A stretch of DNA of 64,000 bases, taken from the NCBI RefSeq assembly GCF_048403405.1, contig NZ_CP183129.1; one strand, 5' to 3'. Positions 32,272-64,000 of this stretch are shown here, piece after piece; position 1 is the first letter of the stretch, and every line of letters starts with the position of its first letter. The notes beneath the pieces are model-generated. The model searched no databases, was not told the origin of the DNA, and saw nothing but the letters and a program-made list of their open reading frames with translations. The position numbers and the translations under genes were made by a program. The stretch is from Escherichia coli (lineage in GTDB: Bacteria; Pseudomonadota; Gammaproteobacteria; Enterobacterales; Enterobacteriaceae).

Positions 32272-32922
32272 TTAATTTGATTTATTTGCATCCATCAACG
32301 CTTTTAACTGCTCCGGCGAAAACGGTGGTTTGCGTCGGTGCAGCATCGCATGGCAATTAGGGCACACAGGAAGCAAATCATTAACTGGATCCAGCTGGTA
32401 ATCCTCTTTAATGGCTGAAAGCGGCACCAGGTGATGCATATGGATAAAGCCTTCTGCGATATCACCATAGATCTTCACCAGATCAACGCCGCATACGTTG
32501 CACTGGCATCCATGATGTTCGACCGCTTTATCTCGGGCCTTTTTATCGCGTTCATAGCGGTTTACTGTCACCTTTATCGCCGCACCTTCAACGTATGTCT
32601 CCTGCGACGGCAACTCATCCGGGAACAGAACGTCGGCTATGGTAGCTGCAGCGGCTTTATCCTGATGAATATGAAATCCCTGCTCTATGAGTAGCTTGAC
32701 ACATTTAGATTTTATTCCGCCGGTGAAATCCGCAGGGGTAAATTGCGTCCCCGTCATCAATGTCGCTGCGATGCCAGCAATCGCCTTCGAGGGGTAACGT
32801 CGGCCATGATATTCAATCTCATACAACCGTGCAGGCTGGAACTGATGAGTTTCTCCCGCATCCCATAAATGGATAGCTTCGATGATATACCGCCGCGGAA
32901 GATGGTCGGGAAGTTTATTCAT
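32272..32922 (-). CDS. HNH endonuclease with an uncharacterised N-terminal domain (putative modification-dependent/type IV restriction-like nuclease)
   Basis: C-terminal HNH/zinc-finger signature: CQCNVCGV...HMHHLVPLS...CPNCHAMLH; N-terminal ~120 aa of unknown fold. Abuts nanS convergently; first gene of the accessory region. Confidence 0.75.
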   Translation of the reverse strand: MNKLPDHLPRRYIIEAIHLWDAGETHQFQPARLYEIEYHGRRYPSKAIAGIAATLMTGTQFTPADFTGGIKSKCVKLLIEQGFHIHQDKAAAATIADVLFPDELPSQETYVEGAAIKVTVNRYERDKKARDKAVEHHGCQCNVCGVDLVKIYGDIAEGFIHMHHLVPLSAIKEDYQLDPVNDLLPVCPNCHAMLHRRKPPFSPEQLKALMDANKSN

Positions 32923-33300
32923 GGGGAATACCCTTATACGTTCTCAGAACAGGCAGCAAAAAAACAAATGAGATCAAGGTAATATATCTTCACTTGCAGG
33001 CTTGAACAGCAGAAAATTTGCGAGCATGATCGCAATTATTTCACTGCCAGGGATATCAATGGCTTCCAGTAAATCGCTACAGCAGGCAATTGCCAATATA
33101 AAAATCTGGCATAAGGGTGAACAGCGCGCACCGCATAAGCCATTGTTATTGCTATACGTATTAGCGGGATACCTGAATGGACATCCACGCCTTTTCGATT
33201 ATTGTAGTGGAACAGTCTACGAGGATGCAGTTCGAAGTGAGTAAGTAAAGGTTGCTGGAAACGATCAATGCCGCCATACAATGATATTTGAGGATCAACA

Positions 33301-33486
33301 ATGAGTAATAAAAACTACGAAAGTCACCGCAAAGCGATTGTTAGTAAAGGTATACCACCCGCTCTATTAAATAGGCTCACCAATTCGGATGTTCAGGTGA
33401 TCAATACCTTCTTAACACGAGTGAGCAAACTGGAACTATCTCAACAAGAGAAAGACTGGATCATAAAAATCATCTCTATGGTTTAG
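33301..33486 (+). CDS. Small hypothetical protein (61 aa)
   Basis: ORF with an SD-like GAGGA ~6 nt upstream of the ATG; no recognisable domain. Confidence 0.3.
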   Translation: MSNKNYESHRKAIVSKGIPPALLNRLTNSDVQVINTFLTRVSKLELSQQEKDWIIKIISMV

Positions 33487-33523
33487 AGAATTTCAGAATT
33501 TCAAGTAAAGACAATGCTGCATA

Positions 33524-34471
33524 TCAAGCATTCAGGATGGCTAGCGCTAAGCTCCTAAACCTGGAGTAAACCTCATCCCATGTGATCTTTCGCTCTCCAT
33601 ACACCATTGGCGAAACAAACTGCTGATAGCGCATCTGGTAGAGAGGATTGTTCGCCAACTCATCCAGTCCCATTTTTAGCTCATCAACTGGAGACGCGCA
33701 AAACTGCGGGTACTGGTTGCCGTAACGCTGAATGTCCTGCTCAATAGTTTGTTGAACAAAATCAACGAGCAGACTCATATCAACATGACTCGTCTCAACA
33801 ATACAGTTTGTATCGTAGATATGACGTACCAGCGATGCATCATCAAATCGCTCAACATCTCGCACAACTGCCGCAGTACGACGTAACATCGCCACCAGCT
33901 TTTCAGCCTGTGTGCTAATGATAGTTGCGCATGGAAACGCTGAAACAATAGCCGCTTTTCCCGTGATCCCTGTTACCAGTGAATGAATATCCCGTAATTC
34001 AGAAGGCTCCAGTAACTTCGCTTCCATCAATTCCAGCCGGATAAAAGGACGCAAACAAGGTGCCTGCACCACTCGCTGTGGATAACGAACAGGTATGTCA
34101 TTATAACGATATTCATCCCGCGTCACTTTTGGGTAATCATCATCAAAATTGAACACACCCGATGAAGCTATTGCACTGGAAACTGCCTGAACAATTTCTT
34201 TACGGGTATTTTTTCGCTGAGTGCGGGAAAGTGCCTGAAATGCATCCTTAGGCACCAGTTTGATATCCACATCTTCCGACATGCGATTAAGTGCGACACC
34301 TGATTTTGCCAGAGCGGTTCCTCCGGCAAACACCAATTGATGAGTATCGAACACCAGAGGTTTAAGCAATTGCAAAAGCTCAACGATATAGTGATCTTTT
34401 TCCACAATTGCGACAGACTCAATACCAAGCGCGTCAGCCACTTCAGAAAAAAGAGTGGTTAAATCATCCAT
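33524..34471 (-). CDS. AbiEii/AbiGii-family nucleotidyltransferase toxin (DUF1814-like)
   Basis: 315-aa protein with the nucleotidyltransferase motif FAGGTALAKSG...SEDVDIKL near the N-terminus. Confidence 0.75.
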   Translation of the reverse strand: MDDLTTLFSEVADALGIESVAIVEKDHYIVELLQLLKPLVFDTHQLVFAGGTALAKSGVALNRMSEDVDIKLVPKDAFQALSRTQRKNTRKEIVQAVSSAIASSGVFNFDDDYPKVTRDEYRYNDIPVRYPQRVVQAPCLRPFIRLELMEAKLLEPSELRDIHSLVTGITGKAAIVSAFPCATIISTQAEKLVAMLRRTAAVVRDVERFDDASLVRHIYDTNCIVETSHVDMSLLVDFVQQTIEQDIQRYGNQYPQFCASPVDELKMGLDELANNPLYQMRYQQFVSPMVYGERKITWDEVYSRFRSLALAILNA

Positions 34472-34859
34472 TTAATCTGCTGTTCCCTACAGATAATACG
34501 CGTTTAAAACGCCGGGGGGTTTTTATCTCGGGTGAAGCTGGGATCTGCGTAGAAGTACCGCTATTGTATGCCTGCGTTGCGCCAGCAAAACGATAGCGTA
34601 CTTTCAGGCGTTCCAGCGTTTCGACAATCACCGCTGAAGAGCCTCCGGGAGCCGCTGGCATTACCTTGCCTGTAATACCGTTCCGCCGTGCTTTGGTATA
34701 CACGCCATAACCAACCTTCAACAGTTGCCCTTCCCTGACAAGCTCGCGCAATACCCGACCAACCTGATCGTAGCCTGCAATATCTTTAAAGTCGTCACGA
34801 GTGAATACGTAACGTTTAGAACGTTTCAGTCGTGACTGAATGCGTGCTTTTATCGTCAT
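34464..34859 (-). CDS. Putative cognate antitoxin/transcriptional regulator of the AbiE-like pair
   Basis: ~131-aa ORF from the internal ATG (MTIKARIQS...) with a strong AGGAGG SD 7 nt upstream; 3' end overlaps the toxin start by 8 nt. The ORF track extends the start to 34928. Confidence 0.55.
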   Translation of the reverse strand: MTIKARIQSRLKRSKRYVFTRDDFKDIAGYDQVGRVLRELVREGQLLKVGYGVYTKARRNGITGKVMPAAPGGSSAVIVETLERLKVRYRFAGATQAYNSGTSTQIPASPEIKTPRRFKRVLSVGNSRLNG

Positions 34860-62390: not shown

Positions 62391-63007
62391 GCGTTACCCT
62401 CCAGAATAGGGAGCAGTTCGGCTTTGTTTAAACGATGCAAGGCCGCTGCAACAACTGGTAGCAGGAAAACGTTTTGTAAATTGCGGCGGCGTGGGCTATC
62501 CAGGTAACCAGCTTCTGCGAGAGCCTTAATAAGATTGTTACCCATCTTTTGGATCGATGAATCAGAAAAAGCTGCCAGTTCCGGGTGTAAACGGAGATTC
62601 TCATCCACAAACTCACTCCAACAATTTATACCAAGCTTTTCTTTAAACTGCTGACGAGCTGGATTTACAACTTCAGCAATAAACGTCGCAACAACTGGAG
62701 ACTGGATCATCAACGCAACCAACAACATTTGCAGACGCTCGCTTTCACTGCCATCAGCAATCAGTTGCCAGCACTCCCGATCCAGGGTCATCAATCGCAG
62801 CCTTAAGGTTCGGGCATAACGATTTGCCGTACTCGTGGAGGACGCCTGAAGAATATTTTCATTGATTATTTGCTGCTGCCAGGTTGTTTCATCTGGTTCA
62901 GAGAGCAACAGCTCAGCAATGGTTCGGCTCTCACGAACCATCAACGAACCACCCAGCAGATCGCCAATCCAGCGTTTGTCATTTTTTGTCATGGTATTTA
63001 TCATCAA
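62387..63007 (-). CDS. brxA: BREX protein BrxA (DUF1819)
   Basis: ~200-aa first gene of the operon; true start may be the internal Met at ~62992. Confidence 0.8.
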   Translation of the reverse strand: MMINTMTKNDKRWIGDLLGGSLMVRESRTIAELLLSEPDETTWQQQIINENILQASSTSTANRYARTLRLRLMTLDRECWQLIADGSESERLQMLLVALMIQSPVVATFIAEVVNPARQQFKEKLGINCWSEFVDENLRLHPELAAFSDSSIQKMGNNLIKALAEAGYLDSPRRRNLQNVFLLPVVAAALHRLNKAELLPILEGNA

Positions 63008-63520
63008 AAATCCGGAATGCTGCTCGCAAAAATCAAGTAATGATTGTAATCGGCATGCAAGATAGATGCTATGACTATGGTCAGCTCAATATACGTTCAT
63101 AGTACGAGTACAGTTATAAAAATGGGAGGGTTAACCAGTTCCGGTATCTTTTCCTACACAAACATATACTTGAGATCGTGCCCGCATCGTGGACAATGTT
63201 TAACCATGATGATTTTATATCAACGAAATCAATAGTTTTATTTGAGTTACGGGACGGGGAATGGACAGCAATACTCAAGAATTTACTTCATGCTGGCGAA
63301 TACCTTAGCTGATGCCGAGTCTGGAAAATGTAATGATGTGATGGACGACCTTTCCTGAAGCAGACAGTGCCATACTTTTACTGTCTGCGTTTGCTAAGGG
63401 AGTAAATCACATCACTACAAATAGTCCTTCTGTGTCAGCTTTTACGCCGAATGCTAAGCTCCTCTTTAGGGGGCGATCTTATGATTCCGGTGGCATTAGC
63501 TGGAATAAAAAAGAATTTAT

Positions 63521-63543
63521 TGAGCCGGTTGCTCTTCCCCCCA
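63521..63543 (-). terminator. Putative terminator hairpin downstream of the integrase gene
   Basis: Perfect 10-bp stem GCTCTTCCCC-ccag-GGGGAAGAGC ~30 nt beyond the integrase stop, followed on the minus strand by a T-rich stretch ~15 nt later. Confidence 0.35.
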
Positions 63544-63574
63544 GGGGAAGAGCATGTGTGTGAATAGCGTTCTG

Positions 63575-64000
63575 TCACCTTCTCAGCGGATTGTTAACCT
63601 TTGCATATTCAAACGGACTGATACCCTTCTCTCTGTTCGCATCCAGAAAATCCGCCCACCACTGTAACATCAGCTTGCGCTCATCCAGATGTTCCGCTTT
63701 ATGGATATACGCCGCCCTCACCGAATTGCGTTCCATATGGCTCATCTGCCTTTCCACCGCATCCTTCGACCATAGCCCTGACTCAATTAACGAACTACAG
63801 ACCATTGTGCGGAAGCCGTGGCCGCAAACTTCAACCTTAGTGTCATAACCCATCACCCGTAGTGCACTGTTTACCGTGTTCTCGCTCATGGGCTTACGCG
63901 GATCATGATCGCCAATAAAAATCAGCTCATGTTCGCCACAGAACTGTTTTATCTGCTTCAGGGTCGCTAGCGCCTGCTTTGAAAGCGGCACTAGATGAGG
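63575..64000 (-). CDS. P4-type tyrosine integrase, C-terminal part; gene continues beyond the window end
   Basis: C-terminal catalytic region with HGFR and Y (…VCGHGFRTMVCSSL…RAAYIHKAEHL…); frame is open to the window edge. Confidence 0.85.
   Translation of the reverse strand, partial: PHLVPLSKQALATLKQIKQFCGEHELIFIGDHDPRKPMSENTVNSALRVMGYDTKVEVCGHGFRTMVCSSLIESGLWSKDAVERQMSHMERNSVRAAYIHKAEHLDERKLMLQWWADFLDANREKGISPFEYAKVNNPLRR

Follow-up and report, generated by a model that had tools for sequence, protein, structure and literature searches.

A BREX-bearing region of an Escherichia coli chromosome is probably the body of one decayed CP4-like leuX island

Introduction

This study concerns positions 32272-64000 of a 64,000-nucleotide (nt) stretch of an Escherichia coli chromosome (NZ_CP183129.1; the whole stretch is called the window below), which carry part of a P4-family integrase gene, a type 1 BREX (bacteriophage exclusion) system, further defence genes and a set of CP4-type prophage genes. 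We found that 34916-64000 is very probably the body of a single decayed CP4-like island of the tRNA gene leuX, that has two cargo bays and is joined to a relic flank. An original prediction, made from the sequence alone, had seen two accreted CP4-like modules in the same region.

The leuX interval is E. coli defence hotspot #37 of Hochhauser et al. 2023 (PMC10121019). It was filled in 97.3% of genomes and held 31 types of defence system, while 68% of the occupied loci had no detectable mobile element and the mode of mobilisation was unclear; P4-like satellites were also reported there (PMC10121019). According to an EcoSal review, BREX is present in about 9% of these loci, and an integrase that recognises the tRNA gene lies at one end (PMC12707154). 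Repeated integration at one tRNA gene, relic integrases, insertion sequence (IS) elements and mosaicism are hallmarks of E. coli islands, including the pathogenicity islands (PAIs) at leuX (PMC7545054). Our literature search found no paper on this particular element.

Results

Related strains carry the region as one leuX element

The window is 99.99% identical to the chromosome of strain 4621 (NZ_CP103479.1), from which it differs over positions 25001-64000 by 3 mismatches and one 1-nt indel. Gene names were taken from the RefSeq annotation of this genome and from our own profile scans (PADLOC, Pfam and PHROG), and population counts refer to a search of 5426 complete genomes. Eight genomes match the window end at approximately 100%, namely 4621, OX030728, 98205, OZ121091, TUM14771, GN02461, MS 69-1 and TUM1226.

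In two further strains, 2014C-3338 and ws5-3, the counterpart of 34916-64000 is one continuous unit at 97-98.5% identity, and this integrase-BREX-operon-backbone unit is the sole element at leuX in both. The order is leuX, an intact integrase gene, BREX-1 with an embedded gene pair, an IS3 relic, an operon, and a backbone made up of WYL, GTPase, hypothetical, AlpA, Gp2, hypothetical, DUF932, RadC, YeeU, CbtA and DUF4942 genes. In 2014C-3338, DUF4942 is followed by CopG/RelE genes and a helix-turn-helix (HTH) regulator, then by the right attachment site, attR, with the sequence CGGCCTTCGCACCA, and then by the native leuX terminator. This terminator is the one that lies directly 3' of leuX in strain ECO8855, where the attachment (att) site is empty. 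The 2014C-3338 element is delimited at about 31.7 kb, with both att sites and an intact integrase.

Strain FHI_NMBU_03 also has an intact integrase beside leuX, and its operon and backbone are 98.0% identical to the window over 34951-46599. There, a 9-kb block of DUF4917, type I restriction-modification (RM) and restriction endonuclease genes replaces the IS3 remnant and BREX of the window, and attR and a second integrase lie beyond that element. The full integrase pseudogene of strain 4621 shows 94.9% nucleotide identity to the intact leuX-adjacent integrase of FHI_NMBU_03. Because FHI_NMBU_03 pairs a 94.9% identical integrase and a 98.0% identical backbone around other cargo, the integrase at the window end is the backbone's own. 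The IS3 relic occupies an identical junction position in ws5-3, 2014C-3338 and plasmids of the IncHI type.

The window holds a decayed integrase, one backbone set and no att repeat

The integrase gene lies at the tRNA-proximal end of the element and is cut by the window end, so that the last ~141 codons are seen (63575..64000, minus strand; PHROG integrase families). It is 38% identical to IntA of the K-12 cryptic prophage CP4-57 and is a pseudogene in all 8 near-identical genomes, having lost its ATG and acquired two stops and one frameshift; in 4 of these genomes it adjoins leuX.

Searches for att copies were made with several queries. The leuX 3'-end 20-mer and 18-mer, with up to 3 mismatches, had no copy within the window, and the 14-nt form that is seen at every attR gave zero window matches with up to 1 mismatch (0.02 expected by chance). 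A blastn-short comparison of leuX plus 250 nt downstream with the window likewise revealed no att site; leuX-derived att copies are written here as CGGCCTTCG(G)CACCA. The leuX terminator gave two matches of 11-12 nt at 47783-47852, which were not collinear and were judged to be chance. ARAGORN detected no tRNA gene in the whole window, and no second integrase was found in 32272-64000. When 13 backbone proteins were compared with the window by tblastn, each gave its self match only.

Thus, the region from 32272 to 64000 contains neither an internal att relic or second integrase nor two backbone sets, and flanking att repeats of the kind expected for a CP4-type island are absent from the window. 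These results bear on several statements of the original prediction. Its "second set" of backbone genes is the only set, and the backbone that it took to lack an integrase has its cognate one at the window end, as judged from 2014C-3338, ws5-3 and FHI_NMBU_03. It had also proposed leuX att repeats as its check, and had named their absence together with continuity with a single element as what would speak against it; the window has none, and the gene order is that of a single continuous element.

The element follows the plan of CP4-57

The element shares with CP4-57 of K-12 a P4-family integrase at a tRNA-like gene, AlpA, a YfjJ-like protein, a GTPase (YfjP), DUF932 (YfjQ), a WYL regulator (YfjR), a RadC-like protein and a CbtA/YeeU-type pair, which make up the CP4-type backbone set. 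Eight backbone proteins are homologous to CP4-57 proteins, with 28-83% amino acid (aa) identity. The overall plan is also alike, with the integrase followed by cargo (AbpAB and RnlAB in CP4-57) and then by the GTPase/DUF932/WYL/RadC/toxin-antitoxin backbone. Because CP4-type islands place their cargo between integrase and backbone, an integrase-less backbone should not be read as a separate module.

From bay 1 outward, the backbone begins with the WYL regulator (42685-43368, minus; 42% identical to YfjR) and an annotated GTPase pseudogene, frameshifted into two open reading frames (ORFs) (41633-42645, minus; 37-52% identity to YfjP). The remaining central genes encode a 261-aa hypothetical protein (40836-41621, minus), AlpA (40416-40634, plus; Pfam PF05930, E 4e-10, and PHROG excisionase/regulator families), a Gp2/YfjJ-like protein (39684-40298, plus; 28% identical to YfjJ) and a 317-aa hypothetical protein (38139-39092, minus). 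The distal backbone, annotated by RefSeq and entirely on the minus strand, comprises DUF932 (37084-37902), RadC (36581-37054), YeeU (36246-36581), CbtA (35874-36215) and DUF4942 (34929-35762). Here, identities to CP4-57 proteins are 71% for YpjF, 59% for YfjZ, 55% for LfgB/RadC and 83% for YfjQ. Useful NCBIfam names were found neither for the two backbone hypotheticals nor for the proteins of the operon described below.

The element differs from CP4-57 in several respects. The target is leuX here and ssrA there; AlpA and the YfjJ-like gene are in mid-backbone rather than adjacent to the integrase; DUF4942 stands at the end; genes for YfjI (DUF3987), antirestriction and DUF987 proteins are lacking; and the cargo is BREX, HEC-01 and AbiE.

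Defence genes occupy two apparent cargo bays

Comparison of the relatives points to two positions that appear to serve as cargo bays, bay 1 from the integrase stop to about 43476 and bay 2 after DUF4942. Bay 1 is taken to reach ~43476 because some 190 genomes keep the WYL gene (91-99% identity) and diverge at that position, the end of the backbone, and only 25 of the 5426 genomes carry the operon. Nissle 1917 has an ABC-three-component system after WYL where the window has the operon. In the window, bay 1 consists of three layers, BREX with HEC-01, the IS3 relic and the GIY-YIG operon. Homology to FHI_NMBU_03 breaks at 46599/46600 and 63598/63599, which bound the outer part of the bay (46600-63598). 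Bay 2 corresponds to 33497-34915; it starts at 34916-34925 directly after the DUF4942 stop and is occupied by AbiE, and in 2014C-3338 and FHI_NMBU_03 this position is occupied by CopG/RelE, the HTH regulator and attR.

The BREX genes, all on the minus strand and given their RefSeq (PGAP) names, are brxA (62387-62992), brxB (61788-62390), brxC (58161-61775), pglX (54459-58112), pglZ (50178-52775) and brxL (48092-50167). The six genes of a type 1 system are clustered with their ORFs open. Between pglX and pglZ lie, also on the minus strand, the HEC-01A ATPase gene (53338-54459; PADLOC E 1e-181) and the HEC-01B gene for a DUF4276 protein (52775-53344; PADLOC E 5e-100 and Pfam DUF4276). Both are full-length PADLOC matches to HEC-01, a candidate system that is known here from its genes. 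This cassette was constant in every copy of this BREX that we examined. Salmonella LT2 StySA has an ATPase and DUF4435 pair at the same place, which suggests that the pglX/pglZ interval is a recurrent insertion point in BREX-1. Bay 2 carries adjacent, overlapping AbiEii and AbiEi ORFs (33524..34859, minus), both full-length PADLOC matches (E 1e-126 and 2e-53, respectively). All BREX, HEC-01 and AbiE reading frames are intact.

Two details of this block were noted. Positions 55206-56408 of pglX (approximately aa 570-970) form the sole break in the 97-98% identity with the BREX of ws5-3 and 2014C-3338, with a GC dip to 0.37, and this segment resembles an exchanged specificity region of that methyltransferase. 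Between brxA and the integrase, a run of cytosines at ~63543 in a terminator hairpin loop (63535-63550) is C6 in the window and C7 in 8 of the 8 best-matching genomes; either the source genome is outside the collection, or the difference stems from the sequencing of a homopolymer.

The inner part of bay 1 is an operon on the plus strand (44037..46539), which encodes proteins of 180, 90 and 324 aa and a GIY-YIG protein. It had been counted as five genes but has four. Its last two ORFs, 45888-46181 (97 aa) and 46189-46539 (116 aa), are the halves of a single GIY-YIG gene (217 aa); alignment with the intact 654-nt gene of FHI_NMBU_03 shows that 2 bp have been lost from a run of C near 46160-46170. 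The N-terminal half matches the PADLOC candidate PDC-S57 (E 2.5e-28). The 90-aa protein has a weak match to PDC-M14A and to the ECs_2282 CxxC zinc-binding family. An IS3-family transposase relic, annotated as frameshifted with an internal stop (46673..47778, plus), forms the junction between operon and BREX.

The distal end is joined to a conserved relic flank

Neither the HTH regulator nor attR is present in the window, and at 33497 AbiE adjoins a 275-bp piece (33222-33496) that contains a 61-aa ORF (33301..33486, plus; phrog_25874, E 4e-47). Next come a 150-nt 5' stump of a gene for a phosphorothioated-DNA-binding restriction endonuclease (33059..33208, plus; annotated as partial in strain 4621), an HNH endonuclease gene (32272..32922, minus; Pfam HNH and weak PADLOC matches to type IV restriction endonucleases) and nanS, the stop of which is at 32264. 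Left of 32272 lie fim, nanC, nanM and nanS.

At least 80% of window 30800-33560 was present in 1137 of the 5426 genomes. Strain 602354 has an unrelated leuX island (three integrases, a relaxase and Kiwa), yet it has the same HNH gene beside nanS, as well as the stump and the 61-aa piece up to the equivalent of 33496, at which point the piece runs into an attR and the relic of an integrase promoter. Because the HNH flank is present whichever island occupies leuX, we place it outside the element, and 32272-33496 is a widely conserved relic flank rather than element cargo. The attR of strain 602354 is followed by three extra CACCTTCG repeats and then by the integrase-promoter relic, the gene itself having been deleted (locus L003, 22698-22935).

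EC31, ws5-3 and 2014C-3338 have the restriction endonuclease gene at its full 873 nt, and the homology of the stump to this gene ends at window 33202-33222. In 2014C-3338 (L007, 12705-13027) and EC31 (L004, 23177-23356), the native sequence that separates attR from the endonuclease gene includes an 83% identical fragment of a brxL 3' end, annotated as "peptidase, partial". This fragment appears to be a remnant of an older BREX-bearing island at leuX.

The junction of DUF4942, AbiE and flank was found in 133 genomes, including ECO8855, in which only hsdRMS lies between this junction and leuX with its native terminator. Identity of the window to ECO8855 is 99.2-99.6% up to about 34965 and 86-94% beyond, and the window DUF4942 gene shows scattered single-nucleotide differences from every comparator, with no clear switch point. 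The drop in identity is suggestive but not decisive; the AbiE end may have arisen when an element arriving at the locus recombined, within DUF4942, with a resident relic similar to that of ECO8855.

In some near-identical genomes, tandem accretion lies beyond the window end

In strain 4621, leuX is 47 kb past the window end. About 1 kb past it (equivalent to ~64995-65065), the 3' end of leuX and its terminator are repeated as a 68-bp copy with one 1-bp deletion. To the left, this copy matches the attR side of another CP4-like module, as seen in EC31, and to the right it matches the attL side of the window element. The 46-kb composite that extends from there to leuX carries a complete second backbone, an intact integrase of its own and an integrase fragment, together with a SIR2 protein, type I RM and tia. 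The fragment (L002, 40135-40320) sits between the SIR2 and type I RM genes and tia, with no att copy beside it. This leuX-proximal 46-kb module is probably itself composite.

The tandem junction was present in 96 of the 5426 genomes. Four of the eight near-identical genomes (TUM14771, GN02461, MS 69-1 and TUM1226) have the dead integrase directly beside leuX, and the other four have a second module in between, in one variant in 4621 and OX030728 and in another in 98205 and OZ121091. Accretion at leuX is therefore recent and ongoing, since near-identical strains differ in the presence of the second element. Because all eight genomes share identical integrase-inactivating mutations, with or without a second module, these comparisons suggest that the window element may have been resident and dead before second elements reached leuX, or that second elements were later excised.

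Discussion

The arrangement is best explained by an island that integrated into the 3' end of tRNA-leuX by site-specific recombination, with the order, from leuX inward, of attL (outside the window), integrase, bay 1, backbone from WYL to DUF4942, and bay 2. The distal HTH regulator and attR would then have been lost and the AbiE end fused to an older relic flank abutting nanS. Among relatives, cargo differs through the exchange of whole blocks between conserved flanks, presumably by homologous recombination in the integrase and backbone with help from IS elements. A further CP4-like element that enters the regenerated leuX site would place the newcomer upstream of this integrase, outside the window. 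Because its integrase is a pseudogene and attR is missing, the element is immobile and now behaves as a fixed chromosomal defence island. The mobility genes have decayed and every defence ORF is intact, which is consistent with domestication.

Several observations weigh against a single element. The attL site and most of the integrase are outside the window and are known only from the near-identical genomes, and the distal limit (34916 or 33497) was set by comparison and not by a repeat, attR being absent from the window. The IS3 relic separates BREX from the operon. A block of integrase, BREX, HEC-01 and IS3 remnant, at 99.3% identity and without the backbone, is carried in three strains by IncHI plasmids of 225-280 kb and conjugative type (for example L010, NZ_AP027830.1, 5680-24110). 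The integrase is intact there, and the block is cut by IS903B within the GIY-YIG gene; thus, the part made up of cargo and integrase can travel separately. Upstream of the plasmid integrase is a sequence like the leuX 3' half with an altered anticodon region. Finally, the tract at window 39500-43000, which runs from Gp2 and AlpA through a hypothetical gene to GTPase and WYL, reaches 99.6-100% identity with the selC island of Nissle 1917 (L009, 16999-20791), against 95-99% for neighbouring backbone tracts and for the leuX relatives. In that strain, members of this backbone family form a tandem array at selC (tRNA-Sec), with other cargo and other integrases, and these identities imply that islands at different tRNA genes may have exchanged DNA recently. 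It follows that the element is a recombinational patchwork rather than a clonal unit.

The IS3 relic, the plasmid block and the separate history suggested by the selC-like tract are also what favours the division made by the original prediction, into an integrase, BREX and operon module on one side and an integrase-less module from WYL to DUF4942 with AbiE and HNH on the other. We regard this division as very unlikely. It would leave unexplained why the complete unit stands alone between leuX and attR in 2014C-3338, and why, in FHI_NMBU_03, other cargo lies between an integrase of 94.9% identity and a backbone of 98% identity. The window has no att repeat and one backbone set, and K-12 CP4-57 likewise consists of one integrase, cargo and backbone. 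The mosaicism is that of recombination tracts and cargo blocks within a single element and does not reflect the accretion of two.

It could also be argued that no mobile element is involved and that a defence island was built in place, its genes swapped by homologous or illegitimate recombination between core flanks with the integrase as a bystander. The 68% of occupied hotspot #37 loci in which no mobile element was detected (PMC10121019) would fit such a process, as would the dead integrase and missing attR of the window, its mosaic identity tracts, and ECO8855, which has hsdRMS, DUF4942 and AbiE but no integrase and retains the native leuX terminator. We nevertheless consider it very unlikely, given that 2014C-3338 has both attL and attR along with an intact integrase, that genomes otherwise ~100% identical here differ precisely at the att site in having or lacking a second module, and that this backbone is also found at selC, a different tRNA gene. 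The P4-family integrase, AlpA and tRNA target would also fit a P4-like phage satellite with a defence hotspot, and such satellites are known from this hotspot (PMC10121019). However, the window has no homologue of the P4 alpha-type primase (YfjI/DUF3987), and the PHROG categories of the backbone are limited to integration/excision and one "DNA repair" match of RadC. The names psu, delta and sid were not among the PHROG categories of the backbone proteins, although no dedicated profiles were searched for these. A satellite thus has a very low probability, and a single decayed CP4-like island remains the best explanation.

Previous reports on hotspot #37 (PMC10121019 and PMC12707154) describe the same locus, between leuX/ahr and nanS/fim, and treat it as one hotspot, whereas the present analysis separates its occupant into a relic flank and a CP4-like element that has two bays and, in relatives, att sites. 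Salmonella Typhimurium StySA (PMC9009780; Bishop et al. 2005) is similar in having BREX-1, a leuX-anchored variable island, a P4-family integrase and a two-gene ATPase cassette between pglX and pglZ. The partner of the ATPase is DUF4435 in StySA and DUF4276 (HEC-01) in the window, and the comparison covered the BREX region and its leuX anchor. In contrast to the leuX PAIs (PMC7545054), the cargo here is anti-phage defence and not virulence, and one module is present in the window.

Other parts of the original prediction fared unevenly. The genes that it named are real, apart from the GTPase gene being frameshifted and the integrase being cut by the window end and a pseudogene in near-identical genomes. 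Its view of decay is borne out by the dead integrase, the lost attR, two frameshifted genes and the IS relic. Tandem accretion does not apply inside the window but does occur at leuX beyond its end, in 4 of the 8 near-identical genomes. Defence genes do sit at variable positions in the case of the BREX/HEC-01 block, the GIY-YIG operon and AbiE. This is not so for HNH, which belongs to a flank found in more than 1100 genomes whatever the island, nor for the nested cassette, which is constant in every copy of this BREX that we examined.

Taken alone, this island carries little weight. It occupies the best-known E. coli defence hotspot, mosaic decaying tRNA islands are textbook knowledge, and its defence systems are all either known (BREX-1 and AbiE) or catalogued candidates (HEC-01 and the PDC-S57-like gene). 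The analysis does show that a handful of complete genomes suffices to resolve the hotspot into an element, two replaceable bays and a relic flank. We tentatively raise the possibility, which we hold to be less probable than not, that the CP4-like family, with its P4-type integrase, WYL/GTPase/DUF932/RadC/CbtA backbone and two bays, is a general and unrecognised vehicle that loads and exchanges defence genes at hotspot #37 and at tRNA hotspots of the selC type, and that later decays into islands with no detectable mobile element. If true, this would account for the 68% of hotspot #37 occupants that were left unassigned by Hochhauser et al.

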